A DNA stretch of 64,000 nt from a phage, in the sequence record PZ445489.1; one strand, given 5' to 3'. Below are positions 1 through 23,241 of the stretch, one piece after another. The notes under the pieces were generated by a model. The model did not search any database. It was not told where the DNA came from and was given only the letters and a program-made list of their open reading frames with translations. Made by a program: the position numbers and the translations under genes. The first letter of the stretch is position 1, and every line of letters starts with the position of its first letter.

Positions 1-1317
1 ATGGAAGTATCAAGACCCTATGTTAATACAGTAGATGTTATTGATTTCGGAATAGATAAGCGTTTCTTTCGTTTACCCGTTTCCGGAATACTAGCACAAG
101 AGGGTATCACACCTAATGGCCCTCAAATAGCAATTATCAATGCCCTAGAAGACCCTAGACATCGTTTTGTAACGGCATGTGTATCACGCCGTGTAGGTAA
201 ATCTTTTATAGCGTATACACTTGGGTTCCTAAAATTGCTGGAACCTAATGTGAAGGTACTAGTAGTTGCCCCTAACTATTCACTAGCTAATATCGGATGG
301 TCTCAGATTCGTGGTCTTATTAAGAAGTACGGCCTACAAACCGAACGTGAAAACGCTAAAGATAAAGAGATTGAGTTAGCTAATGGTTCTCTATTTAAAC
401 TAGCTTCCGCGGCTCAGGCTGACTCCGCGGTTGGACGTTCATATGATTTTATCATCTTTGACGAGGCGGCAATTTCCGATGTGGGTGGTGATGCCTTCAG
501 GGTTCAGCTGCGTCCTACCCTAGATAAGCCTAATTCTAAGGCTCTATTTATTTCCACCCCTCGCGGAGGTAACTGGTTTAAAGAGTTTTACGCCTACGGA
601 TTCGATGATACGTTACCTAACTGGGTGTCTATTCATGGTACATATCGTGATAACCCACGTGCTGATTTGAATGACATTGAGGAGGCACGCCGTACGGTTA
701 GTAAAAACTACTTCCGCCAAGAATACGAAGCTGACTTCTCTGTATTCGAAGGACAGATATTTGATACCTTTAATGCTATCGATCATGTTAAAGATCTCAA
801 AGGTATGCGTCACTTCTTTAAAGATGATGAAGCATTCGAAACGTTGCTTGGTATTGACGTTGGTTATCGTGATCCTACAGCAGTTCTTACTATTAAATAT
901 CATTACGATACGGATACTTACTATGTATTAGAAGAGTACCAGCAGGCGGAGAAAACTACAGCTCAGCATGCTGCTTATATTCAGCACTGTATAGATCGTT
1001 ATAAAGTTGATCGTATTTTTGTTGACTCTGCAGCAGCTCAGTTCCGCCAGGACTTAGCTTATGAGCATGAAATTGCCTCAGCTCCAGCTAAAAAATCTGT
1101 CCTAGATGGCCTAGCATGCCTGCAAGCACTGTTCCAACAGGGCAAGATTATTGTAGATGCCTCATGTTCCTCCTTAATTCATGCATTGCAGAATTACAAG
1201 TGGGACTTCCAAGAAGGTGAAGAGAAATTATCACGTGAAAAACCACGTCATGATGCTAACTCTCACCTTTGTGATGCGCTCCGCTATGGAATTTATTCTA
1301 TTTCCCGTGGTAAATAA
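1..1317 (+). CDS. Terminase large subunit (ATPase + nuclease); ORF begins at window edge so true start may lie upstream
   Basis: 438 aa; Walker-B-like FIIFDEAA, N-terminal ATPase region then C-terminal acidic nuclease region; first gene of head module. Confidence 0.85.
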   Translation: MEVSRPYVNTVDVIDFGIDKRFFRLPVSGILAQEGITPNGPQIAIINALEDPRHRFVTACVSRRVGKSFIAYTLGFLKLLEPNVKVLVVAPNYSLANIGWSQIRGLIKKYGLQTERENAKDKEIELANGSLFKLASAAQADSAVGRSYDFIIFDEAAISDVGGDAFRVQLRPTLDKPNSKALFISTPRGGNWFKEFYAYGFDDTLPNWVSIHGTYRDNPRADLNDIEEARRTVSKNYFRQEYEADFSVFEGQIFDTFNAIDHVKDLKGMRHFFKDDEAFETLLGIDVGYRDPTAVLTIKYHYDTDTYYVLEEYQQAEKTTAQHAAYIQHCIDRYKVDRIFVDSAAAQFRQDLAYEHEIASAPAKKSVLDGLACLQALFQQGKIIVDASCSSLIHALQNYKWDFQEGEEKLSREKPRHDANSHLCDALRYGIYSISRGK

Positions 1318-1431
1318 ATAAGTATAGGATGGGATACTACTCAGTTGGTATCCCATTCCTGTATTTTAAAATCCCCTTTACAAATTCGATACGATTATGT
1401 ATACTATATTCATACAGTTGAGGAGAACACT

Positions 1432-1869
1432 ATGGCAAGCAATATAAAATATAAACGCGATGCTATATCCCTTATGAGAGACGGAATAAAAAGTCAATAT
1501 AAAAAAGACTCTCAATGTGCTATCTGCGGTTGTGCTGAAGAATTAGAGCTTCATCATTACCATACGGTGTCTCTACTAGTTAAAAAATTTGCTAAAGAAC
1601 TCCAATTGGATTTCACTGACGAAGAAACAGTCCTTTCAAATAGGACGGCATTCTATGATCGATATAGGCATGAGCTAGTAGAAGACACTGTTACCCTCTG
1701 TGTACACCATCACCAATTATTACATAAGGTTTACACAAAAGAACCTCCTTTATTTTCTGCTAATAAGCAAAAAGTGTGGGTTCAAAAGCAGAAAGACAAA
1801 TTACAGAATCCTCAAGAAAAGACACAAGTCAAGACTGAAACAAAATCAGGATTCGCAAGGTTCTTATAA
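1432..1869 (+). CDS. HNH-type endonuclease-like protein
   Basis: CAICGC...LHHYH...N...LCVHHHQLLH matches the C-x2-C/HH/N/C-x2-H HNH pattern; start moved to ATG 1432 with AGGAG 6 nt upstream (track start 1345). Confidence 0.55.
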   Translation: MASNIKYKRDAISLMRDGIKSQYKKDSQCAICGCAEELELHHYHTVSLLVKKFAKELQLDFTDEETVLSNRTAFYDRYRHELVEDTVTLCVHHHQLLHKVYTKEPPLFSANKQKVWVQKQKDKLQNPQEKTQVKTETKSGFARFL

Positions 1870-3086
1870 TGGGTTTTAAAAGCTGGATTACTGAAAAGCT
1901 AAATCCGGGTCAACGTATTATAAGAGACATGGAACCAGTTAGTCATCGCACTAACCGTAAGCCTTTTACCACTGGACAAGCCTACAGTAAAATTGAGATT
2001 CTCAATAGAACTGCTAATATGGTTATAGATAGTGCGGCGGAGTGTTCTTATACTGTCGGAGATAAATATAATATTGTTACGTACGCTAATGGCGTCAAAA
2101 CAAAGACTCTAGACACTCTCTTAAATGTACGACCTAATCCATTCATGGATATAAGCACATTCCGTAGACTTGTAGTCACTGACCTACTTTTTGAAGGTTG
2201 TGCATACATCTATTGGGATGGCACATCGCTTTACCATGTCCCGGCCGCTCTTATGCAGGTCGAGGCAGATGCCAATAAGTTTATCAAAAAATTTATATTT
2301 AATAATCAGATAAACTATCGCGTAGATGAGATTATCTTTATAAAGGATAACAGTTACGTGTGCGGCACAAATTCTCAAATTTCTGGACAATCTCGTGTTG
2401 CTACTGTTATTGATTCTCTTGAGAAGCGTTCCAAGATGCTTAACTTTAAAGAGAAATTCCTCGATAACGGAACCGTGATTGGTCTTATTCTTGAAACGGA
2501 TGAAATCCTGAACAAGAAATTGCGTGAGCGTAAACAAGAAGAATTACAACTCGATTATAATCCTAGTACTGGTCAGTCTTCTGTCCTGATTCTAGATGGT
2601 GGTATGAAAGCTAAACCGTACTCCCAAATATCCTCTTTTAAAGATCTAGACTTTAAGGAAGACATCGAAGGATTTAATAAATCTATTTGTCTAGCCTTTG
2701 GAGTTCCGCAAGTACTGCTTGATGGTGGTAATAATGCGAATATTCGACCAAACATCGAATTGTTCTATTATATGACTATCATTCCTATGCTGAACAAACT
2801 GACTAGTTCTCTTACTTTCTTTTTTGGTTATAAGATTACTCCTAATACTAAGGAGGTAGCTGCATTAACACCAGATAAAGAAGCTGAGGCTAAACATTTA
2901 ACCTCATTGGTTAATAATGGTATTATGACTGGTAACGAAGCTCGTTTAGAGCTGAACCTTGAACCTTTAGATGATGAGCAGATGGATAGGATTCGTATTC
3001 CTGCTAACGTTGCTGGTTCTGCAACAGGTGTATCTGGTCAAGAAGGTGGTAGACCTCAAGGTTCCACCGAGGGAGATAAAGAATGA
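1869..3086 (+). CDS. Portal protein
   Basis: 405 aa directly after terminase and before protease/capsid; size and position as in T5-like phages. Confidence 0.8.
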   Translation: MGFKSWITEKLNPGQRIIRDMEPVSHRTNRKPFTTGQAYSKIEILNRTANMVIDSAAECSYTVGDKYNIVTYANGVKTKTLDTLLNVRPNPFMDISTFRRLVVTDLLFEGCAYIYWDGTSLYHVPAALMQVEADANKFIKKFIFNNQINYRVDEIIFIKDNSYVCGTNSQISGQSRVATVIDSLEKRSKMLNFKEKFLDNGTVIGLILETDEILNKKLRERKQEELQLDYNPSTGQSSVLILDGGMKAKPYSQISSFKDLDFKEDIEGFNKSICLAFGVPQVLLDGGNNANIRPNIELFYYMTIIPMLNKLTSSLTFFFGYKITPNTKEVAALTPDKEAEAKHLTSLVNNGIMTGNEARLELNLEPLDDEQMDRIRIPANVAGSATGVSGQEGGRPQGSTEGDKE

Positions 3087-3577
3087 TTGATTATAATGGT
3101 CTAAAGACCATTTTTGGTGAAAAACTACCAGAATCTCATATCTTCTTTGCTACGGTTGCTGCGCATAAATATGTTCCTAGCTATGCTTTTCTGCGTAGAG
3201 AACTAGGGCTTTCATCTGCGCATACTAACCGTAAAGTATGGAAGAAATTTGTAGAGGCTTATGGTAAAGCAGTTCCTCCTGCTCCACCGGCCCCACCGTT
3301 AACTCTTTCTAAAGATTTAACTGCTAGCATGTCGGTTGAAGAGGGAGCAGCATTAACACTTTCTGTTACTGCAACTGGTGGTACTAGTCCATATACTTAT
3401 GCATGGACTAAAGATGGTTCTCCTATTCCGGAAGCTTCAGGAGCTACCTATACTAAGCCTGCAGCAGCTACGGAGGATTCTGGAGCCTATAAAGTAACTG
3501 TAACAGATAGTAAGCAAGTAAGTAAGGATTCTACTGCATGTGCTGTGACAGTTAATCCTACTGTTCCTGGAGGCTAA
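3083..3577 (+). CDS. Head decoration protein with C-terminal Ig-like domain (pb10-like)
   Basis: 164 aa; PPAPPAPP linker followed by Ig-like segment (YTYAWTKDGSPI...GAYKVTVTD); overlaps portal stop. Confidence 0.65.
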   Translation: MIDYNGLKTIFGEKLPESHIFFATVAAHKYVPSYAFLRRELGLSSAHTNRKVWKKFVEAYGKAVPPAPPAPPLTLSKDLTASMSVEEGAALTLSVTATGGTSPYTYAWTKDGSPIPEASGATYTKPAAATEDSGAYKVTVTDSKQVSKDSTACAVTVNPTVPGG

Positions 3578-5666: not shown

Positions 5667-6179
5667 ATGCAAATAATCACAGCTGAAGACTATAGATTAT
5701 ATGGTGGGTTAAAACGACCTGAACTAGAATCTGGAGTAGAGATGATGATTACTGCTGCCAATGCGCTGATTACTAGCCTTTTAGGTATGGATGATGCTGA
5801 TGCGGTAGACCAGTTAATCAATACAAAACCTACTCGTAAAAAATACTTCTTAAGTTCTCCCTCGGCTACTTCAGTAACCAAAATGACTATTAACGACAAG
5901 GAGATAGATCCAGAACAATATAAGTTGTATTCTGATGGGGTTATACTTCTTAAATTTAATCCCCCAGAAGGTTATATGGGTGTAGAATACACACAAGGTG
6001 GATTTAATCCAATACCTGAGGATCTCAAACTTGCAGCATGTATGCTAGTAGATCATTGGCATAAACAGGATTACCGTCAAGCTAAAACAATTGGCGGAGA
6101 AACAGTTACTTTTAATAATACTAAGTCTGGTATTCCAGAGCATATTCGTACTATTATTGAAGTTTACAGGAGAGTATAA
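5667..6179 (+). CDS. Putative head completion / connector protein
   Basis: 170 aa ORF immediately downstream of capsid gene in head-tail junction position; no recognisable catalytic motif. Confidence 0.45.
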   Translation: MQIITAEDYRLYGGLKRPELESGVEMMITAANALITSLLGMDDADAVDQLINTKPTRKKYFLSSPSATSVTKMTINDKEIDPEQYKLYSDGVILLKFNPPEGYMGVEYTQGGFNPIPEDLKLAACMLVDHWHKQDYRQAKTIGGETVTFNNTKSGIPEHIRTIIEVYRRV

Positions 6180-6946
6180 TGTCTCTTTCTGATTTAGCTA
6201 CACAAATTATTAAGGAGCAGCTAGATAATGTTGGGCGTTCCGAGAACAATAAGAATACTGTTGTATATTCTGTTGAAACAGGACTGAAAGATCCTACTAG
6301 AGATGGTACTGTTGCTCAGGTATCTTTTAAATTCTCAAAACCTATATCCCAAGATCTCCTTAATGTTAGGACCGCTTCTATTCTAAAAGCAGTTTCTTCT
6401 AGCTTAGATCTAACAGGAGATTTAGGTGCTCTAGAGAATTTAATACAAGCAACCGCTGGTAAAAAATCTGCTGTAGGTAAAAAACGTTCTACTGGTAGAG
6501 TTCAAGTAAACTTTGGGGATCCTAGAGACGTAGAAGATGGATATTCTGGTGCAGTAACAGGTGCTTCTGGTCGTTTTGTATCAAATAGTAATATGAAGGT
6601 TATTCTGGAGTTGGTTGCTAAAGAATACTTAATAAAGGATATGAAAAAAGCAGGAGCTCCACTTAAATTTAGAACAGGTCGTTTTGCAAACTCTCTAAAA
6701 GTTAAAGATGTTATGCTTAGAGATGCTGGAACTAGCAAAGGTGCTCCGGAATTAAACGTTACATATAATTATATGGTACGTCCATATTCAGTATTTAATC
6801 CTGCAGTATCTACATATCGAAGATTGTCACTACGACCCTACCCAGGTGCTAGAAACCCTCAAAGACTAATTGGAGAGGCGATAGCTAAAGCTGCAAGAGA
6901 CTTAATTCACTCCAGATACAAAATTAAGGTTAATCAAGGAACCTAA
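6179..6946 (+). CDS. Hypothetical structural protein (head-tail joining region)
   Basis: 255 aa ORF, translationally coupled to neighbours within the structural operon. Confidence 0.4.
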   Translation: MSLSDLATQIIKEQLDNVGRSENNKNTVVYSVETGLKDPTRDGTVAQVSFKFSKPISQDLLNVRTASILKAVSSSLDLTGDLGALENLIQATAGKKSAVGKKRSTGRVQVNFGDPRDVEDGYSGAVTGASGRFVSNSNMKVILELVAKEYLIKDMKKAGAPLKFRTGRFANSLKVKDVMLRDAGTSKGAPELNVTYNYMVRPYSVFNPAVSTYRRLSLRPYPGARNPQRLIGEAIAKAARDLIHSRYKIKVNQGT

Positions 6947-6949
6947 TAA

Positions 6950-7435
6950 ATGGATCACAGAACAAGTATAGCACAAGCTCTGGTTGATCGAATAGCCAAA
7001 CAAATGGATGGCTCTCAACCAGATGAATATTTTAATAACTTGTATGGAAACGTCTCACGTCAAACTTATAAGTTTGAGGAGATACGAGAGTTTCCTTATG
7101 TTGCAGTTCATATCGGAACTGAAACTGGGCAGTATCTTCCCTCAGGTCAACAGTGGATGTTTTTAGAACTTCCTATCCTGGTGTATGATAAAGAGAAAAC
7201 AGACATTCAAGAGCAACTTGAAAAACTCGTAGCGGATATAAAAACCGTTATTGACACAGGTGGAAATTTAGAATATACTGTTAGTAAACCTAATGGATCG
7301 ACCTTCCCATGTGAGGCGACTGATATGAGCATTACATCAGTTAGTACAGATGAGGGTCTACTGGCCCCATATGGTTTAGCAGAAATAAATGTAACAGTGA
7401 GGTATCAGCCTCCACGTAGGTCACTTCGCAGATAA
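6950..7435 (+). CDS. Putative tail terminator / tail completion protein
   Basis: 161 aa ORF immediately upstream of the tail tube gene. Confidence 0.4.
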   Translation: MDHRTSIAQALVDRIAKQMDGSQPDEYFNNLYGNVSRQTYKFEEIREFPYVAVHIGTETGQYLPSGQQWMFLELPILVYDKEKTDIQEQLEKLVADIKTVIDTGGNLEYTVSKPNGSTFPCEATDMSITSVSTDEGLLAPYGLAEINVTVRYQPPRRSLRR

Positions 7436-7461
7436 GTTACAGATTAGGAGAAAATAATTAA

Positions 7462-8868
7462 ATGTCTTTACAACTATTACGTAATACTCGAATCTTCGTG
7501 TCTACGGTTAAGACTGGTCACGATAAGACCAACACGCAAGAGATTCTAGTTCAGGATGATATTTCTTGGGGTCAGGACAGTAACTCAACAGATATTACTG
7601 TTAACGAAGCTGGTCCGCGTCCTACTCGTGGTTCTAAACGTTTTAACGATTCCTTGAATGCAGCTGAGTGGAGCTTCTCCACCTATATCCTGCCATACAT
7701 GGATAAAACTACTAGCAAACAAATTGTTCCTGACTATATGTTATGGCATGCACTTTCTAGTGGTAAAGCTATTAACCTTGATGGAGATACTGGAGCACAT
7801 AATAATGCTACTAACTTCATGGTTAACTTCAAAGATAACGCATATCACGAACTGGCTATGCTGCATATTTACATTCTAACTGACAATGCGTGGAGTTACA
7901 TTGACTCTTGCCAGATCAACCAGGCAGAAGTTAACGTTGATATTGAAGATATTGGTCGTGTAACTTGGTCTGGTAACGGTAATCAGCTCATTCCGTTAGA
8001 TAGCCAACCATTTGACCCTGATGCATTAGGTATTGATGATGAAACTTATATGACTATTCAGAGTTCTTACATTAAGAACAAGTTAACTATCCTAAAAATT
8101 AAGGATATGGATTCTGATAAGGCATATGATATTCCTATTACTGGTGGTACTTTTACCATTAATAACAACATCACGTACCTAACCCCGAATATTATGTCAC
8201 GTGTAAATATTCCAATCGGCTCATTTACGGGTGCGTTTGAGTTAACGGGTTCTTTGACAGCTTACCTTAATGATAAGTCTCTTGGTTCTATGGAACTGTA
8301 CAAAGATCTGATTAAAACCCTTAAGGTAGTTAACCGTTTTGAAATCGCACTTATTTTGGGTGGAGAATATGACGAGGAACGTCCGGCAGCTGTGTTAGTT
8401 GCTAAACAGGCGCACGTTAATATCCCTACTATTGAGACTGATGATGTACTTGGTACTTCAGTAGAGTTTAAAGCTATTCCTACTGATTTGGATACTGGTG
8501 ACGAAGGTTATCTTGGATTTTCTAACAAGTATACAAAAACTACTGTGGCTAATCTGATTGCTACGGGGGATGGTGCTAAAATTCCTCCAGTTCCCGTTAA
8601 ATCCATTACAGTTAAGTCGGCAGGTGAGGCTGTTTCTGTAACAAATAGTAATACTTTACAGATGTCTGTTGAGGTAACACCTTCAGAAGCTACTAATAAG
8701 GCTGTAACTTGGTCTATTTCTAGTGGTAACGCAGCTACAATTGATGCAGAATCTGGGTTATTAACAGCTGATGCCTCTAAAACTGGTGCAGTTACTGTGA
8801 AGGCTGTAGCTAAAGATGGTTCTGGTGTAGAAGGTACTAAAACTATCACAGTTAGTGCTGGTGGTTAA
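7462..8868 (+). CDS. Major tail tube protein with C-terminal Ig-like (BIG2-type) domain (pb6-like)
   Basis: 468 aa; C-terminal ~90 aa Ig-like segment (SITVKSAGEAVSVTNSNTLQMSVEVTPSEATNKAVTWSISSGN); position before chaperones and tape measure. Confidence 0.8.
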   Translation: MSLQLLRNTRIFVSTVKTGHDKTNTQEILVQDDISWGQDSNSTDITVNEAGPRPTRGSKRFNDSLNAAEWSFSTYILPYMDKTTSKQIVPDYMLWHALSSGKAINLDGDTGAHNNATNFMVNFKDNAYHELAMLHIYILTDNAWSYIDSCQINQAEVNVDIEDIGRVTWSGNGNQLIPLDSQPFDPDALGIDDETYMTIQSSYIKNKLTILKIKDMDSDKAYDIPITGGTFTINNNITYLTPNIMSRVNIPIGSFTGAFELTGSLTAYLNDKSLGSMELYKDLIKTLKVVNRFEIALILGGEYDEERPAAVLVAKQAHVNIPTIETDDVLGTSVEFKAIPTDLDTGDEGYLGFSNKYTKTTVANLIATGDGAKIPPVPVKSITVKSAGEAVSVTNSNTLQMSVEVTPSEATNKAVTWSISSGNAATIDAESGLLTADASKTGAVTVKAVAKDGSGVEGTKTITVSAGG

Positions 8869-14475: not shown

Positions 14476-15090
14476 ATGAGATTACCAGACCCATACACGA
14501 ATCCAGAACTTTCAGGCTTAGGATTCGAAAGTGTTAACCTGATTGATAATGACCCAGTAATTCGTGATGAGTTACCTAATGGTAAAGTTAACGAAGTTAA
14601 GGTATCCGCTCAGTACTGGGGTATAAACATTTCTTACCCAGAATTGTTTCCTGATGAATTCAGTGTTCTAGATTCCTTTATTCTAGAGTATAAGAGGACA
14701 GGAGGCTACATTGATGTTATACTACCTCAGTATGAGGCTTTTAGGGTTAGGGGTAATACTAACTTAGTAAATATACCTGCTGGACAGAAAGGTTCCAATA
14801 TTACTATGGATACAAAAGGTGTTCTTACCGGTATTCCTAAACCAGGTGATTTATTTAAGTTATCCAATCACCCAAAAGTTTATAAAATAACATCATTTAA
14901 TAGATCTGGTAATTCATGGTCTATTAACGTATATCCTGATTTATTTGTAACTACTACTGGAGCTGAAAAACCAGTATTTAATGGGATACTATTTAGAACA
15001 AAACTCATGAATGGTGATGCTTTCGGATCTACATTAAATAATAACGGAACATATTCCGGCATCTCATTAAATTTACGGGAAAGTTTATGA
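14476..15090 (+). CDS. Distal tail protein (Dit, pb9-like)
   Basis: 204 aa directly after tape measure; strong RBS AAAGAGGAGAAA. Confidence 0.75.
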   Translation: MRLPDPYTNPELSGLGFESVNLIDNDPVIRDELPNGKVNEVKVSAQYWGINISYPELFPDEFSVLDSFILEYKRTGGYIDVILPQYEAFRVRGNTNLVNIPAGQKGSNITMDTKGVLTGIPKPGDLFKLSNHPKVYKITSFNRSGNSWSINVYPDLFVTTTGAEKPVFNGILFRTKLMNGDAFGSTLNNNGTYSGISLNLRESL

Positions 15091-17936
15091 AAAAAATACT
15101 AGATAGTGCTAGAAACTACTTAAAAAATAATAGCAGAATAAAAACTGCTAGTCTAATTTCTCTAGAGTTACCTGGCTCTACTGGTACTAGTACTGCTTTT
15201 ATTTATTTAACTGATTATTTTAGGGATGTACTATATAATGGCATCCTATACCAGGCGGGTAAAGTTAAGTCTATTAGCACACACAAACAAAATAGAGATT
15301 TATCTATTGGTAGTCTATCTTTTACTATTACTGGTACAGCACAGGATGAAGTACTAAAACTAGTGCAAAATGGTGTATCCTTCTTAGATAGAACCGTATC
15401 AATTCATCAAGCAATTATTACCGAAGATGGTTCTATTCTACCAGTAGACCCAGATACAAATGGTCCTCTACTATACTTTAGGGGGAGGATTACTGGAGGG
15501 GGCATTAAAGATAACATTAGTACCTCTGGAGTAGGAACCTCTACAATTACCTGGAATTGTTCTAACCAATTCTATGACTTTGATAGAGTTAATGGTAGAT
15601 ATACTGATGACGCCTCCCATAGGGGACTTGAAGTTGTAGCTGGACAGTTAGTACCATCTAATGGTGCTAAAAGACCTGAGTACCAAGAAGACTATGGGTT
15701 CTTTCATTCTAATAAGAGTATATCTATACTAGCAAAGTACCAAGTACAGGAAGAAAGGTATAAGCTAAAATCAAAGAAAAAACTATTTGGCTTATCTAGA
15801 AGCTACAGCCTTAAAAAATACTATGAAACTGTCACTAAGGAAGTAGATATAGATTTTAACCTTGCTGCTAAATATATCCCAGTAGTTTATGGCGTACAGA
15901 AAATACCAGGAATACCAATTTTTGCTGATACAGAACTACACAATCCCAACATAGTTTATGTCGTATACGCCTTTGCTGAGGGGGAGATTGATGGTTTTCT
16001 TGATTTCTCTTTTGGTGATAACCCTATGATCTGCGTAGATGCTAATGATAGCTCCGCTAGAACCTGCTTTGGTACTAAAAAAGTGGCTGGGGACACCATG
16101 CAAAGAATAGCGTCAGGAACACCTTCTAGTAGTCCTTCCGTGCATGGGCAGGAGTATAAGTATAATGATGGTAATGGTGACATAAGAATTTGGACGTATC
16201 ATGGAAAATCTGATCAAACGGCTTCTGAAGTACTAGTAGATATAGCTAAAGAACGTGGGTTCTACCTTCAGAATATGAATGGCAATGGACCGGAGTACTG
16301 GGATGCTAGGTATAAACTATTAGATACTGCATACGCAGTGGTGCGCTTCACTATTAATGAAAATAGGACTGAGATTCCTGAAGTTAGTGCTGAAATTCAA
16401 GGTAAAAAAGTAAAAGTCTATCATTCTGATGGTAGAGTAACTGCTAATAGTACTAGTTTAAATGGTATTTGGCAAACACTTGATTACTTAACCTCTGATA
16501 GATACGGTGCTAATATTACCATTGATCAGTTCCCCCTTCAGCAATTAATACAGGAAGCAGCTATTTTAGATATTATAGATGAATCCTATCAGGTATCTTG
16601 GCAGCCATATTGGAGATACGTTGGGTGGACTGATCCACTAGCAGAAAATAGACAAATAGTACAAATGAATACTATTCTGGATACATCTGAATCAGTATTT
16701 AAAAATGTGCAAGGTTTATTAGAGTCCTACGGTGGGGCTATTAACAACTTATCTGGCCAGTACAGGGTTACTGTAGAAAAATACTCTAATACTCCATTAG
16801 AGATTAATTTTCTAGATACTTATGGTGATTTGGAGCTATCAGATACTACTGGTAGAAATAAATTCAACTCAGTTCAAGCATCTATCGTAGACCCAGCCCT
16901 TAGCTGGAAAACTAATTCCATTACATTCTATAACTCCAAGTATAAGGAACAGGACAAGAACCTGGATAAAAAATTACAACTATCTTTTGCTAATATTACT
17001 AATTACTATACTGCAAGAAGTTTTGCGGATAGAGAACTTAAGAAATCCAGATACTCAAGAACACTTTCTTTCTCATTGCCATATCAATTCATTGGTATTG
17101 AGCCTAATGATGCTATTGCATTCACATATGATCGTTATGGATGGGACAAAAAGTATTTCCTAGTTGATGAGGTTGAAAACTCTAGAGAGGGTAAGATAAA
17201 TGTTACTCTACAGGAGTATGGAGAAGATGTATTCATCAACTCTGAGCAGGTTGATAATAGCGGTAATGATATACCAGATATTAGTAACAATGTTCTTCCT
17301 CCTAGAGATTTTAAGTATACTCCTACACCCGGTGGCTTAGTTGGTTCTATAGGTAAAAATGGTGAGTTATCCTGGCTTCCGAGTCTAACCAATAATGTAG
17401 TTTATTACTCTATCGTGCATTCCGGTCATGCTGAACCTTATATTGTGCAGCAACTAGAAACAAACCCCAATGAACGCATAATCCAAGAGATAATTGGAGA
17501 GCCTGCAGGTTTAGCAATATTTGAAATAAGGGCTGTGGATATAAACGGTAGAAGAAGTTCTCCAGTAACATTATCTATAGAACTTAACTCTGCTAAAAAC
17601 CTAAGCGTAGTATCTAATTTTAGAGTAACTAATACTGCCTCTGGAGATGTAACTGAGTTTGTTGGCCCAGATGTGAAACTAGCCTGGGATAGAATACCTG
17701 AAGAAGATATAATAGAGAGTATATTTTATACCCTTGAAATACACGATTCGCAAAATAGGATGTTAAGAAGTGTACGTATTGAAAATCAGTATACTTATGA
17801 CTATTTATTAACGTATAATAAGGCAGATTTTGCTCTCCAGAACAGCGGTGCTCTAGGTATAAATAGAAAATTGTATTTTCGTATTAGAGCTGAAGGGGAT
17901 GATGGAGAACAGTCTGTGGAGTGGGCATCCATTTAA
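15087..17936 (+). CDS. Baseplate hub / tail-associated lysin-like protein (pb3-like)
   Basis: 949 aa following Dit, overlapping stop/start; canonical Dit-hub order. Confidence 0.75.
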   Translation: MKKILDSARNYLKNNSRIKTASLISLELPGSTGTSTAFIYLTDYFRDVLYNGILYQAGKVKSISTHKQNRDLSIGSLSFTITGTAQDEVLKLVQNGVSFLDRTVSIHQAIITEDGSILPVDPDTNGPLLYFRGRITGGGIKDNISTSGVGTSTITWNCSNQFYDFDRVNGRYTDDASHRGLEVVAGQLVPSNGAKRPEYQEDYGFFHSNKSISILAKYQVQEERYKLKSKKKLFGLSRSYSLKKYYETVTKEVDIDFNLAAKYIPVVYGVQKIPGIPIFADTELHNPNIVYVVYAFAEGEIDGFLDFSFGDNPMICVDANDSSARTCFGTKKVAGDTMQRIASGTPSSSPSVHGQEYKYNDGNGDIRIWTYHGKSDQTASEVLVDIAKERGFYLQNMNGNGPEYWDARYKLLDTAYAVVRFTINENRTEIPEVSAEIQGKKVKVYHSDGRVTANSTSLNGIWQTLDYLTSDRYGANITIDQFPLQQLIQEAAILDIIDESYQVSWQPYWRYVGWTDPLAENRQIVQMNTILDTSESVFKNVQGLLESYGGAINNLSGQYRVTVEKYSNTPLEINFLDTYGDLELSDTTGRNKFNSVQASIVDPALSWKTNSITFYNSKYKEQDKNLDKKLQLSFANITNYYTARSFADRELKKSRYSRTLSFSLPYQFIGIEPNDAIAFTYDRYGWDKKYFLVDEVENSREGKINVTLQEYGEDVFINSEQVDNSGNDIPDISNNVLPPRDFKYTPTPGGLVGSIGKNGELSWLPSLTNNVVYYSIVHSGHAEPYIVQQLETNPNERIIQEIIGEPAGLAIFEIRAVDINGRRSSPVTLSIELNSAKNLSVVSNFRVTNTASGDVTEFVGPDVKLAWDRIPEEDIIESIFYTLEIHDSQNRMLRSVRIENQYTYDYLLTYNKADFALQNSGALGINRKLYFRIRAEGDDGEQSVEWASI

Positions 17937-19993
17937 TGATTTCGAATAATGCACCAGCCAAAATGGTCTTAAATAGTATAATGACTGGATATACAATGGC
18001 GTATGTCCAGCACTCTATATATACTGATTATGACGTTATTGGTAGATCTTTTTGGTTAAAGATGGGAGAAAGTATAGATAGACGTGATTATACCGGTATA
18101 GATACTTTCTTCGTAATGATTAATAATCTAACCCCTTCAACCTCTTACGAGATTCAAGGGGCTTTCTACGACTCTATTATTGATTCTGAACTGCTAGAGG
18201 CTAAGATTGGTATCAATCTCTCTAATGAGACTAACTTTAGGACAAAGGAAAAGCCAATAATTACTGCAGCAAGATCTGAATCAGAACCCGTTGACGTTGG
18301 TGTTGGTGCTCCAATAGTTGTTGTAGAGACTGCTGGTGAAGCTAGTTACTGCACTATTGAATTAAAAAGTACTGCATCAGAAGATAGTGAATGGGTTAAA
18401 TATTATATAGGCGCACTGGGACCTACTATCAAATTTGGTGGTGTTCCTGTTGGCGACTATAAGATCAGAATATCTGGTCAAGTTACGATGCCAGATGGTG
18501 TTACAGTTGACTCATCTGGTTATTATGAATATCCTAGCGTTTTCACTGTAGCTTATAATTTTGTACCACCTACTGCACCTACTAACATTGCCTTTAAAGC
18601 TGCACGAATTGCAGATGGTAAGGAACGATATGATGTCAGAATAGAGTGGGACTGGGAACGTGGTGCGGGTGCTAATGTCCGTGAATTTCTGGTTACTTAT
18701 ATAAACTCTGAAGAATACGCTAAGACTGGCTGGGCTAAAGCTCAAAAGATAAACGTTGGGGCTGCTAGAGCTGCAACGATTATATCATTCCCATGGAAAG
18801 TTGAACATATTTTTAAGGTATCATCAATTGCCTGGGGACCAAATAAGCAAGATATAACAGAATCACCTCCTGTAACATTTATATTGAATGAAGATACTCC
18901 CCTAGACAACAGCTTTGTCAATGAGACGGGTATTGATGTTAATTATGCCTTTATTAAGGGCAGCATGAAAGATGGAGAAATCTGGAGACAGACATTCTTA
19001 ATCGACGCAGCTACTGGTGCTATTAACATTGGTCTGCTAGATGAAGAAGGAAAAGCACCTATTTCTTTTGACCCTATAAACCGTGTTGTTAACGTTGATG
19101 GTAAAGTAATTACTAGAGATATCAATGCTGCTAACTTTATCATGACTAACTTATCTGGTAAAGATAATCCAGCAATCTACACACAAGGTAAATCCTGGGG
19201 GGATAATAACTCTGGTATTTGGATGGGTATGGATAATACTTCAGCCAAAGCTAAGTTAGACATTGGTAATGCTACACAATGGATTCGTTATGATGGTGAT
19301 ACTCTTCGTATATCTAGTGGGGTTGTTATTGGAACCCCTAATGGTGACGTAGATATTGGTACTGGGATGCAGGGTAAACAAACAGTATTTGTTTATAAGT
19401 TAGCAACATCTCTACCTGCTAAACCACTAGAACAAGATTATCCTCCTCCTGGTTGGTCAAAAACTCCACCTAACCGTACAGATATGACACAAAATATCTA
19501 TGCGACTACAGGTACGCTTGATCCGGTTACTAACAAACTTCTTGAAGGTACTAGCTGGTCTGATGTAGTTCAGTGGAGTGGTACTGAAGGTACTATAGGA
19601 CATGATGGACAACGTGGTCCTGGAATGTACTCCTTAGGTATTCCTGGTCTTGGGGGCTGGGATGATGGACAAGCTAATGCCTTCTTCCAGAATAACTTTG
19701 GTAGTCCTCCTGTTAGATATGATGTATTAACCGAATTTAATAGTAATGCTCCACAATCAGCATTTACCAGACAATGGAATGGATCTGGGTGGGTTAACCC
19801 TGCAATGGTTCTTCATGGGAACATGATTGTTAATGGAACAGTGACGGCAGATAAAATTGTAGCAGGAAATGCTTTCTTGTCTCAAATTGGTGTTAATATC
19901 ATTTATGATAGAAATGCTGCGTTATCCGGGAATCCTGAGGCATACTACAAGATGAAGATAGACCTAAATAGTGGGTATATCCATATAAGGTAA
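17936..19993 (+). CDS. Tail tip / central fibre protein (pb4-like)
   Basis: ATG overlaps hub stop (TAATG); track start 17921 is a GTG 15 nt upstream. Confidence 0.65.
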
Positions 19994-19998
19994 GTATA

Positions 19999-20421
19999 AT
20001 GAGTACTGAAAATAGAGTTATAGACTTAGTAATAGACGAAAATGTACCATATGGTTTAATGATGCAGTTTTTAGACGTTGATGATAGTACTTATCCGCCT
20101 ACAGATACTCCAGTTAACTTAACTGGATATTCTCTAAGAGGTACTGTAAAAAATAGTCTAGATGAGAATGCGGAGATATTAGCATCTTTTACTACTAAAA
20201 TTATTGATGCTGCTCAAGGGGCTGTAGCTATAAGTTTGCCAGTAGAATCTGTGGAAAATATAGGAGCTAGAGCATCTAAAGATAGAGATAAATATAACCC
20301 TCGTCAGCGATTCGCAGGATACTATGATATAATTATGACTAGAGATGTTATAGGATCTGCAATTAGCTCCTTTCGTATAATGGAGGGTAAAGTATTTATC
20401 AGTGATGGGGTAACTAAATAA
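19999..20421 (+). CDS. Collar protein (p132-like)
   Basis: 140 aa ORF between pb4-like gene and tail fibre gene. Confidence 0.55.
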
Positions 20422-23189
20422 TGGCAGTAACTACTAAAATTATTGTACAACAAATATTAAATATTGATGATACTAAAGCTACTGCTAGTAAGTTTCCTAG
20501 ATATACAGTAATTCTAGGCAATTCTATTAGCTCTATTACTGCAAGTGAGTTAGTGTCTTCTATTGAGGCAGCAGCTAAGTCTGCTGCAGCTGCAAAAGAT
20601 TCTGAGATAGCGGCTAAAACTTCGGAACTTAACGCTAAAAACTCTGAACAGGAAGCTGCTATTTCTGCTGGAGCTTCTGAAACTTCTGCTACTCAGTCCG
20701 CTGCTTCTGCCGCCCAATCTGCTGCATCAGCTACTAAATCTGAGGAATCAGCAGCTGCAGCTAAAATATCTGAGACTAATGCTAAAACTAGCGAAGATAA
20801 GGCAAAGGCTAGTGAAATTAATGCAAAAACTAGTGAAACTAATGCAAAAACTAGTGAGACTAACGCAAAGGCTAGTGAAGATAAGGCAAAGGCTAGTGAA
20901 ACTAATGCTGCTGCTTCTGCTATTGCAGCAAAGGCTAGTGAAGATAAGGCAAAGGCTAGTGAAACTAATGCTGCTGCTTCTGCTTCGGATTCTAGAGGTT
21001 ATAGAGATGAGGCAGAAATATTCTCTACACAAGCCGGCGCATCAGCATCCGCTGCAAAAACCTCGGAAACAAATGCTAAAACTAGTGAAACAAATGCTAA
21101 AACTAGTGAGACTAATACAAAAACTAGTGAAACCAATGCAGCCCATTCCGCAGCCTCAGCTAGCCAATCAGTAACTACTATTCAAGGCTTAAAATCAGAT
21201 GTTGAGCAATTAAAAACAGATACTCAACTAATTAAAGACAGCACTATAGGTGAAACAACGGCTTTAAAATCTGATGTTGAGCAATTAAAAACAGATACAC
21301 AGAGTATTAAAGATAGTGCGGTAACGGAAACTACAGCGATAAAAGATGCTGCTGCAGCCGAGGCTGCACAAGCAAGTAATAGCGCTACCGAAGCAGGACG
21401 ACAAGCTAGCAATGCTGCTGGTAGCGCACAAAGTGCATCTACAGACGCTGGGCGTGCGGAAGTAGCTGCTGGCAAAGCTGAAGGTATTATTAGTAAATCG
21501 TTATTAAAAGAAAATAATCTTTCAGATCTGTCGGATATTAATGCTTCTCGTCAAACACTCCTTATAGACTCACTTGTGCAGGATGGGGTTCATACTTTTT
21601 TATATTCACATAATAGATTATATAGATTTGTTATTAGGGATGATGGTCTTATCGTTCTTCAGAAAAACATAAATGGTGATGGTATCTCATGGGAATCTCT
21701 TCCATTATCAATTATTGCTGGTGGTACTGGAGCGGATACACTTGAAGGTGCGAGATATAATTTAGGAGTTGATAGGCTGTTTCAGAATTCTGGTGAAACA
21801 GTTTTATACTCTCCAAACAAAGATAAGTATCTAAGCATTTCATCTGATGGGGATCATTGGGGCGTTTATGATGCTACAACCGATCAATGGCTACCACTAG
21901 GTATTCAATTTGGTGGTACAGGAGCTAAGGATGCGAATGGTATTAGAAATAATATAGGACTTGGCGAGAAACATGCACCAAAGTTCTTGAGTCTTACTGT
22001 TGAAAACGAAACGGAAAATGCAACTACTGCAAACGCAGGTCTATACCATTCAAAATTAAAGAGTGCACAAGGCGAAGATATTGGTTCATCTCAGTCTTAT
22101 TTTGAGACTCAATTAGGTGTAGGTAAACACACAATTGGTGTGTTTCATAATAACTTGTCTCACTATTATCAGTTTAATGAAAATGGTACTTTTTCAGGAG
22201 CTAAATCAATCGCATTAGCTGCTGGTGCAGGTATTTATGTTGACGGAAATGAACGCAATCCGTCACAACTATTTTCAATCATGAATCCACCAATAAACAC
22301 ATGGACTGGTGTAAGTCGTTACAACTGGTATGACGATTATGCTATCGCTGGTTTAATCAGAAGAGGTGACACACACATTGAATCTTTTGGAATAGAACTG
22401 TATCAAGCAGGTATACAGAACTATATGCACAAGTTTTACCCTGACGGAAGAACCCATTCCGCCCAATATACAGGGAAGACCCAACAAATGGGCTGGGATG
22501 ATCCTAACTATTGGGGTAACGCTCTAGTTTGGGGCGAGATTATTGGTAACAATGATGGTGGATGGGCGCCAGGTCTATCATGGGGTACTCAATCAACAGG
22601 TGGATATCCACTTCGCGCAACATGGGGGCTTATCCCACAAGGTAATAATGCTTGGCCTTTTTGCTCGTTAAGACTTCGTGGTGATGGGGAGTTTTTCTGC
22701 AACTTCCAGTTTCAACCAGCGTCAAATGATATAACAACATGGTCATCAAGTGGAAATTTCATTTTTCAAAAGGCCGCTAACTCTGACAGAGATTTAAAGC
22801 ATGATATAATTTATACAGATGGAAAAGAAAGCTATGACCGAGTTATGCAGTGGTTGCCAACGATGTTTAAATACAACGGTAGCGACATTCAACGATTCGG
22901 CTTAATAGCTCAAGACCTGCTAAAAATAGACCCCGAATACGTAAAATTAATCCCAGGAGGTGATATTTTTGCAGATGTTGTAGGTGTTAACGATGATGGT
23001 GAAGAATATGTAGATCGTCAAATTGTTGTTGACAAAGCGGATGACACATTAGCGCTTGATAACAACGTCATTATGGCAGATTTAGCTTGCGCATTTCGTT
23101 ATCAAGCCGATAAAGTTAACAAACTTGAGCAAGAATTAACCGAACTGAAAAAACTTGTGAGTGAGCTCATTAAGCCAGATAACTCATAA
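20421..23189 (+). CDS. L-shaped (lateral) tail fibre with C-terminal intramolecular chaperone domain
   Basis: 922 aa; N-terminal Ala/Ser-rich heptad repeats (TSETNAK, KASEDKAKASETNAAASA); C-terminal DLKHD...FGLIAQDL segment resembling S74 autoproteolytic chaperone. Confidence 0.8.
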   Translation: MAVTTKIIVQQILNIDDTKATASKFPRYTVILGNSISSITASELVSSIEAAAKSAAAAKDSEIAAKTSELNAKNSEQEAAISAGASETSATQSAASAAQSAASATKSEESAAAAKISETNAKTSEDKAKASEINAKTSETNAKTSETNAKASEDKAKASETNAAASAIAAKASEDKAKASETNAAASASDSRGYRDEAEIFSTQAGASASAAKTSETNAKTSETNAKTSETNTKTSETNAAHSAASASQSVTTIQGLKSDVEQLKTDTQLIKDSTIGETTALKSDVEQLKTDTQSIKDSAVTETTAIKDAAAAEAAQASNSATEAGRQASNAAGSAQSASTDAGRAEVAAGKAEGIISKSLLKENNLSDLSDINASRQTLLIDSLVQDGVHTFLYSHNRLYRFVIRDDGLIVLQKNINGDGISWESLPLSIIAGGTGADTLEGARYNLGVDRLFQNSGETVLYSPNKDKYLSISSDGDHWGVYDATTDQWLPLGIQFGGTGAKDANGIRNNIGLGEKHAPKFLSLTVENETENATTANAGLYHSKLKSAQGEDIGSSQSYFETQLGVGKHTIGVFHNNLSHYYQFNENGTFSGAKSIALAAGAGIYVDGNERNPSQLFSIMNPPINTWTGVSRYNWYDDYAIAGLIRRGDTHIESFGIELYQAGIQNYMHKFYPDGRTHSAQYTGKTQQMGWDDPNYWGNALVWGEIIGNNDGGWAPGLSWGTQSTGGYPLRATWGLIPQGNNAWPFCSLRLRGDGEFFCNFQFQPASNDITTWSSSGNFIFQKAANSDRDLKHDIIYTDGKESYDRVMQWLPTMFKYNGSDIQRFGLIAQDLLKIDPEYVKLIPGGDIFADVVGVNDDGEEYVDRQIVVDKADDTLALDNNVIMADLACAFRYQADKVNKLEQELTELKKLVSELIKPDNS

Positions 23190-23207: not shown

Positions 23208-23241
23208 AAACCCCAGCGAACAAAATCCGCTGGGGTTTTTC
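23208..23241. terminator. Bidirectional rho-independent terminator between convergent late and early modules
   Basis: CCCCAGCG-AACAAAATC-CGCTGGGG hairpin flanked by A-run on one side and TTTTT on the other. Confidence 0.8.

Follow-up and report, generated by a model that had tools for sequence, protein, structure and literature searches.

Two described systems serve as points of comparison for the gene studied here. The lateral tail fibre protein pb1 of phage T5 (Ltf, 1396 amino acids; PDB 4UW7/4UW8) has as its ligand O-antigen of the polymannose O8 type. Its Thr1263-Ser1264 bond is cut, and once the chaperone has gone the binding tip is no longer masked (PMC4690869). In phage DT57C, cryo-electron microscopy of the fibre protein LtfA (8HQZ chain d, 1076 amino acids) revealed that beta-strands of its N-terminus insert in the LtfC ring and that a helix starting at T40 builds a three-helix coiled coil projecting from the tail tip (PMC10713586). 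We analysed a fibre gene of this group in a stretch of 64,000 nucleotides of phage DNA (sequence record PZ445489.1), hereafter called the window. The window is a segment of a Tequintavirus (T5-like) genome, its first 25 kb being 92-94% identical at the nucleotide level to MET_P1_179_112, VEc33, OSYSP and MM-1. We consider, with a probability of roughly 0.88, that the gene encodes a single-polypeptide lateral (L-shaped) tail fibre of Tequintavirus, mosaic in composition and made of a stalk, a tip and an S74 chaperone. The coordinates of its elements and of the neighbouring features are collected in Table 1.

The open reading frame of 922 codons announced by the original prediction is present in the window, and its identification as a tail fibre is upheld both by the order of the locus and by N-terminal homology. 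The order pb3-pb4-ltfC-fibre, established from the open reading frames and their Pfam matches, was the same in T5, MM-1, OSYSP and VEc33. The stop codon of LtfC overlaps the ATG of the fibre gene, and on the 3' side of the latter lie convergent DUF7369, dUTPase and flap endonuclease genes, as in T5. Since the gene follows LtfC in the pb3-pb4-ltfC cluster, in the T5 order, it was assigned as the lateral L-shaped tail fibre gene. When the protein was compared with PDB sequences using phmmer, the best match was DT57C LtfA (8hqz_d, E=5e-35 over the whole sequence), with the best stretch at residues 1-211 and few differences over the first ~100 residues. By analogy with the DT57C structure (PMC10713586), residues 1-39 would play the lasso and beta-strand role. 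In the window protein, BLASTP similarity to T5 pb1 started at residue 1 and went no further than about residue 250 (43-46% identity), the N-terminus being 46% identical over residues 1-157.

Downstream of this N-terminal segment, the heptad periodicity of the protein is far above what chance or composition would give. Its lag-7 identity was 0.483, versus 0.155 in 2000 shuffles (z=13.6), and in the heptad array all multiples of 7 up to 42 were likewise enriched. The register is continuous over 30 heptads; one position is occupied by Ala in 23 of them and the position three residues further by Ser in 27, which, as read from the sequence, matches the spacing of the a and d positions in a coiled coil with a small core. 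The 21-nucleotide repeats and heptads that had been placed at about 20748-21174 are thus real, as Tandem Repeats Finder also detected them; their extent had been drawn too narrowly, the register running from 20568 to 21197. The heptads are followed by two 25-residue blocks, each composed of 7+7+11 residues, by an 11-residue unit and by an Ala/Ser-rich segment leading to the motif LLKENNLSDL at about residue 361. The sequence LKSDVEQLKTDTQxIKDS occurs twice in the blocks, at residues 257-274 and 282-299, which confirms the duplicated IKDS block of the original prediction. The Ala/Ser-rich segment (residues 307-362) is kept in T5-like fibres with other distal modules, namely ABTNLsp4 and IrisVonRoten gp22. 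Given the heptads and the homology to LtfA in the DT57C structure, the repeats are best read as a coiled-coil stalk, and a trimeric geometry would be consistent with that structure.

The copies of the repeat are found only inside the gene, as controlled by self-BLAST and by tBLASTN of the fibre gene against the window. Two overlapping open reading frames, one of 131 codons out of frame (20779-21174, plus strand) and one of 94 codons in antisense (20748-21032, minus strand), were rejected as genes. They are by-products of the 21-nucleotide periodicity, with periodic Leu/Lys-rich and Ser/Cys-rich translations.

The distal part was modelled with AlphaFold2 from residue 360 to 922, using 41 aligned sequences (predicted local distance difference test, pLDDT, 76.6). 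As an intertwined trimer was modelled here in monomeric form, template modelling scores (TM-scores) are low. Two tandem domains of ~68 residues, each with a helix and five strands, both end in GGTGAxxxxGxR; their self-alignment scored 67 versus a shuffle mean of 24.5 (z=9.5), a value reached by none of the 1000 shuffles. A Foldseek search with the model retrieved a single match with E<=1e-3, namely 4uw8_A, the C-terminal domain of T5 pb1 with its chaperone (E=1.8e-4, probability 1.0). Judging from this model, the distal fold is pb1-like despite sequence divergence. The receptor is probably an O-antigen or another surface glycan.

At the C-terminus, the Pfam family PF13884 matched residues 788-842 with E=3.4e-8 and 34.1 bits for a cut-off of 22, its full profile (1-58) being covered. 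The match begins with the SDRDLK motif, and all of 41 homologues keep residues Ser788, Asp789 and Lys793. The catalytic residues of pb1, Ser1264 and Lys1269, are the counterparts of Ser788 and Lys793, and both chaperones share a Ser-x4-Lys motif. The C-terminal unit of the AlphaFold2 model contains short helices and strands, a long beta-hairpin and a terminal helix of 37 residues, and hence the alpha/beta region, the beta-hairpin 'tentacle' and the C-terminal helix of the S74 chaperone fold. The structural comparison proposed with the original prediction thus supports its chaperone domain. As for the self-cleavage claimed with it, the match to the pb1 cleavage motif leads us to predict a cut at Asn787/Ser788, which would probably yield a mature fibre of 787 residues and a released chaperone of 135 residues. 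The chaperones of the K1F endosialidase and of MyRF belong to the same Pfam family and share the Ser/Lys dyad, the mixed alpha/beta region and the C-terminal helix. They differ by the passenger located upstream, which is a fibre tip here, the beta-helix stalk of a sialidase in K1F and a transcription factor in MyRF.

Together, these elements suggest how the fibre could be built and matured. Residues 1-39 would hold the trimer in the LtfC collar. Residues ~40 to 362 would form a long trimeric alpha-helical coiled-coil stalk, with Ala/Ser-core heptads followed by the 25-residue blocks and 11-residue units, and would be prolonged by the two small beta domains (~373-508) and by a pb1-like beta-rich tip (~538-787) binding a surface glycan. 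The S74 intramolecular chaperone (788-922) would template trimer folding from the C-terminus and then excise itself at Asn787/Ser788 via the Ser788-Lys793 dyad, whereby the binding tip would become exposed. The repeats would act as building blocks of the stalk. Because the units are also repeated at the DNA level, unequal recombination or replication slippage could add or remove whole units, changing the stalk length and leaving the downstream domains undisturbed. From about residue 250, the distal part constitutes a portable cassette swapped among the fibres of T5-like phages, Seuratvirus, Drexlerviridae and lambdoid prophages. Two observations weigh against this reading as a whole. First, phmmer searches of PDB sequences with the full protein and with the last 153 residues returned only DT57C LtfA and 'depolymerase' entries matched by the heptads alone, and reached neither pb1 nor the endosialidase chaperone. 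Second, rough K-12 strains, on which such fibres can be dispensed with, served as hosts in the isolation of several carriers of the allele.

To assess the repeat number, eleven T5-like fibres of the same allele were aligned. The window fibre and those of MM-1, T5_ev212, Elw and the NCBI protein P0001 all count 922 residues and align without a gap. An additional 11-residue unit brings MET, P0003 and P0007 to 933 residues; VEc33 exhibits this unit plus an extra heptad (940 residues), and OSYSP this unit plus a 36-residue unit forming a third LKxDVExLK block (969 residues). Conversely, P0008 lacks exactly 49 residues, corresponding to seven heptads (873 residues). In Seuratvirus-type fibres, 0, 1 or 2 extra 11-residue units give lengths of 827, 838 and 849 residues. 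Apart from isolated one-residue indels, the length variation of both groups consists of whole repeat units. The array thus does expand and contract among relatives, as had been anticipated (by +7, -49, +11, +22 and +36 residues); the gap-free alignments show on the other hand that the repeat number of the window fibre is not unusual, 922 residues being the commonest repeat-number allele among the sequences compared. At ~0.15 nm per residue, the steps would amount to about 1, 1.6, 5 and 7 nm of stalk length, with the helical phase kept.

Such variation could reflect a contingency locus, in which frequent adaptive switching of the copy number retunes fibre length or host range, as opposed to a neutral polymorphism of stalk length. 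Two phage lineages show recurrent indels of whole units independently of each other, and a laboratory mutant of DT571/2 gained one extra copy of a 19-residue LtfA repeat, interpreted as compensatory (PMC4728585). We nevertheless regard adaptive switching as unlikely: the copies are imperfect (70-86% nucleotide identity), which implies lower slippage rates, the commonest length among the fibres compared is that of the window fibre, the copy numbers come without correlating host-range data, and in T5-like fibres host specificity was mapped to the C-terminal region and not to the stalk (PMC4728585). In the orthologous fibre gene of Salmonella phage SA001 (MN445182; positions 403-3215 of locus L008), annotated as fragments of 135, 543 and 1854 nucleotides, the breaks fall in the repeat region; they could be due to sequencing or assembly errors in the repeats, or to a genuinely disrupted fibre.

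An enzymatic tailspike or depolymerase, instead of a binding fibre, is very improbable. The phmmer search did return the PDB 'depolymerase' entries 7vyv, 7vz3 and 7lzj, but these matches cover only the Ala/Ser heptads (residues 97-155, E ~3e-3). Furthermore, the Pfam search found no enzymatic domain in the fibre protein, the AlphaFold2 model has no beta-helix and its best structural match is the non-enzymatic tip of pb1. This candidate was thus rejected.

Slightly less probable still, the gene could encode LtfA as a subunit of a branched fibre of the DT57C type, acting with LtfB as a second receptor-binding protein. LtfA being the best PDB sequence match, it also resembles the window fibre by the tandem repeats preceding LLKxNNLSDL and its S74 chaperone end, and a three-helix coiled-coil stalk like that of LtfA is predicted for the window fibre. 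However, phmmer matched LtfA only at residues 1-211, at the C-terminal chaperone and at two short patches of weak similarity in the distal half. Besides LtfA, DT57C possesses a branching region and LtfB as a second fibre protein, both missing in the window phage. No ltfB-type second fibre gene was found downstream of the fibre gene in the window, where the next open reading frames are the convergent ones mentioned above, and the branched fibre was rejected on this ground.

The comparison with T5 pb1 bears on the length of the fibre. At the same locus, both proteins share a homologous anchor, an AKTSETN-type heptad stalk and a pb1-like distal tip fold. The heptads of pb1 span roughly residues 45-215, an array no longer than that of the window fibre. 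The original prediction was right that the latter is shorter (by 474 residues), but not in implying that the repeats account for this: as similarity to pb1 ends at about residue 250, the deficit stems from a different distal part. According to these alignments, the window protein belongs to the fibre family without being orthologous to pb1 throughout, its residues ~250-922 representing a different cassette. A pb1 orthologue that has become shorter because its repeat array contracted, an idea favoured by the identical genomic position, the homologous N-terminus and heptads and the contraction that did occur in P0008, is therefore the least credible of the readings, since BLASTP found no significant collinear alignment of residues 260-787 with pb1 residues 220-1263 and the length difference lies in non-homologous distal sequence, while the repeat indels observed do not exceed 49 residues.

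A search with residues 360-922 retrieved 186 proteins, in which the distal cassette occurs on four kinds of backbones. On T5-like backbones (fibres of 873-969 residues), the homology extends over the full length with 87-99% amino acid identity. In phages of ~59-60 kb whose fibres (826-849 residues) carry a PF08400 N-terminus, it starts at residue 223 with 74-90% identity; among these, 'Aeromonas' phage SD04 (827 residues) is classified as Seuratvirus. In Drexlerviridae (slyngel gp40, atuna and G29-2; 731-736 residues), it starts at residue 260 or 441, with 66% identity over residues 260-917 for slyngel and 81% over residues 441-917 for atuna. Finally, in E. coli chromosomal lambdoid prophages, a fibre of 814 residues encoded downstream of gpJ is homologous from residue 502 with 64-77% identity. 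Overall, the last three kinds share with the window fibre LKSDVEQLK block, beta domains, tip and chaperone at 65-90% amino acid and 85-90% nucleotide identity, whereas their N-terminal virion anchors (PF08400 in Seuratvirus) are unrelated. In the opposite direction, the T5-like fibres ABTNLsp4 (1024 residues) and IrisVonRoten gp22 (796 residues) are common to the window fibre at residues 1-518 and 1-354 only and diverge thereafter. Homology thus starts or stops at domain borders in both directions, and the fibre gene is, as far as these comparisons tell, a mosaic in which a T5-group proximal stalk meets, at such borders, a distal cassette that is exchanged widely. Hypervariable lateral-fibre loci with conserved N-termini, reported previously (PMC8594841, PMC4728585), are in line with this.

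One of the prophages lies in a 709 kb E. coli contig (GCA_910664985.1; positions 6001-8445 of locus L011) and encodes the same tip and chaperone with ~77% identity from residue 502. Its fibre gene is located downstream of a gpJ-like gene and adjoins a block of bacterial genes in which Pfam recognises ABG_transport, Peptidase_M20 and LysR-type domains.

Table 1. Coordinates of the fibre gene, its predicted elements and neighbouring features in the window
Feature	Position (residues)	Strand	Basis or remark
Lateral (L-shaped) tail fibre gene	20421-23189	+	Open reading frame list; 922 amino acids plus stop
N-terminal anchor, predicted to insert into the LtfC ring	20421-20537 (1-39)	+	phmmer to 8hqz_d; pb1 similarity
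30 heptads, predicted trimeric alpha-helical coiled-coil stalk	20568-21197 (50-259)	+	Includes arrays 20771-20984 and 21066-21139
21-nucleotide tandem repeats	20771-20971		Tandem Repeats Finder, 9.6 copies, 70% matches
63-nucleotide super-period, KASEDKAKASETNAAASA-type unit	20771-20984		Tandem Repeats Finder, ~3 copies, 82-84% matches
Second 21-nucleotide array	21066-21139		Tandem Repeats Finder, 3.5 copies, 86% matches
75-nucleotide duplication	21189-21331		Tandem Repeats Finder, 1.9 copies, 81% matches
Duplicated 25-residue block LKSDVEQLKTDTQxIKDS(T/A)(I/V)xETTA	21189-21338 (257-306)	+	Ends in 11-residue (hendecad-type) unit
Ala/Ser-rich stalk continuation	21339-21506 (307-362)	+	Up to LLKENNLSDL motif
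Two tandem ~68-residue domains	21537-21944 (373-440, 441-508)	+	AlphaFold2 model
Beta-rich distal domain, presumed receptor-binding tip	22032-22781 (538-787)	+	AlphaFold2 pLDDT mostly 80-92
Predicted autocleavage site Asn787/Ser788	22779-22784	+	SDRDLK at 788, similar to pb1 SDARLK at 1264
Intramolecular chaperone / Peptidase_S74 domain	22782-23186 (788-922)	+	
Codons substituted relative to P0001	20511-20513, 21360-21362, 21429-21431, 22545-22547 (31, 314, 337, 709)		
pb3	15087-17936		Upstream of fibre gene
pb4	17921-19993		Four Pfam PB4 domains
LtfC/p132 collar gene, attachment partner of the fibre	19999-20421	+	140 amino acids; PF23926, E=1.3e-14
Hairpin, 14-bp stem flanked by A and T runs	23208-23238	.	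Between convergent fibre and DUF7369 genes

Regarding the surroundings of the gene, the hairpin that follows it is likely a bidirectional terminator; its T5 counterpart, at the same position, is annotated as a bidirectional rho-independent terminator. LtfC/p132 is a single intact open reading frame in the window, where the T5 RefSeq record NC_005859 has T5.135 and T5.136 instead, a split that the authors of the DT57C structure put down to an erroneous frameshift in that record (PMC10713586). Neither tRNA genes nor Rfam families at gathering score were detected in 1-64000, and the T5-type tRNA cluster is thus not included in the window.

By its alignments, the gene is of an already known kind, near-identical copies having been deposited. 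It is 91-93% identical in nucleotides, over its full length, to the tail fibre genes annotated in Tequintavirus MM-1, Elw, T5_ev212 and EC148, and more than 10 phage records hold genes at this level of identity annotated as tail fibre. Fibres of the same allele are found in MM-1/MM-2, T5_ev212, vB_EcoD-Elw, EC148 and SUT_E420/520/1520 (922 residues), MET_P1_179_112 (933), VEc33 (940) and OSYSP (969), at the same locus and with the same domain order. They are 87-94% identical in amino acids over the full length, differing only by point substitutions and by whole repeat units (+7, +11, +36 or -49 residues). The closest protein, P0001, is identical at 918 of 922 positions (99.6%), the window fibre having I instead of T at residue 31, E instead of S at 314, Q instead of R at 337 and G instead of D at 709; all other aligned relatives keep Thr31. 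A literature search for functional data on the allele (OSYSP, phiLLS, VEc33) returned genome descriptions only.

Beyond annotation, the significance of the locus is small. The analysis maps the domains and predicts the cleavage site of an allele common in T5-like biocontrol phages (OSYSP, phiLLS, VEc33, MM-1), and the idea that repeat contraction lies behind the short length is corrected. We also propose, tentatively and with more doubt than confidence, that the heptad and hendecad arrays are more than filler and act as a length-tuning and module-swapping adaptor. If so, indels in whole helical-period units (7, 11, 7+7+11, etc.) would keep the distal phase while changing the reach by ~1-7 nm, and the conserved coil segments would provide the homology for swapping receptor-binding cassettes among the four unrelated backbones. 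The receptor-binding cassette itself circulates among Demerecviridae, Queuovirinae, Drexlerviridae and prophages, and its junctions near residues 250, 360, 440 and 500 are natural splice points of use for host-range engineering.

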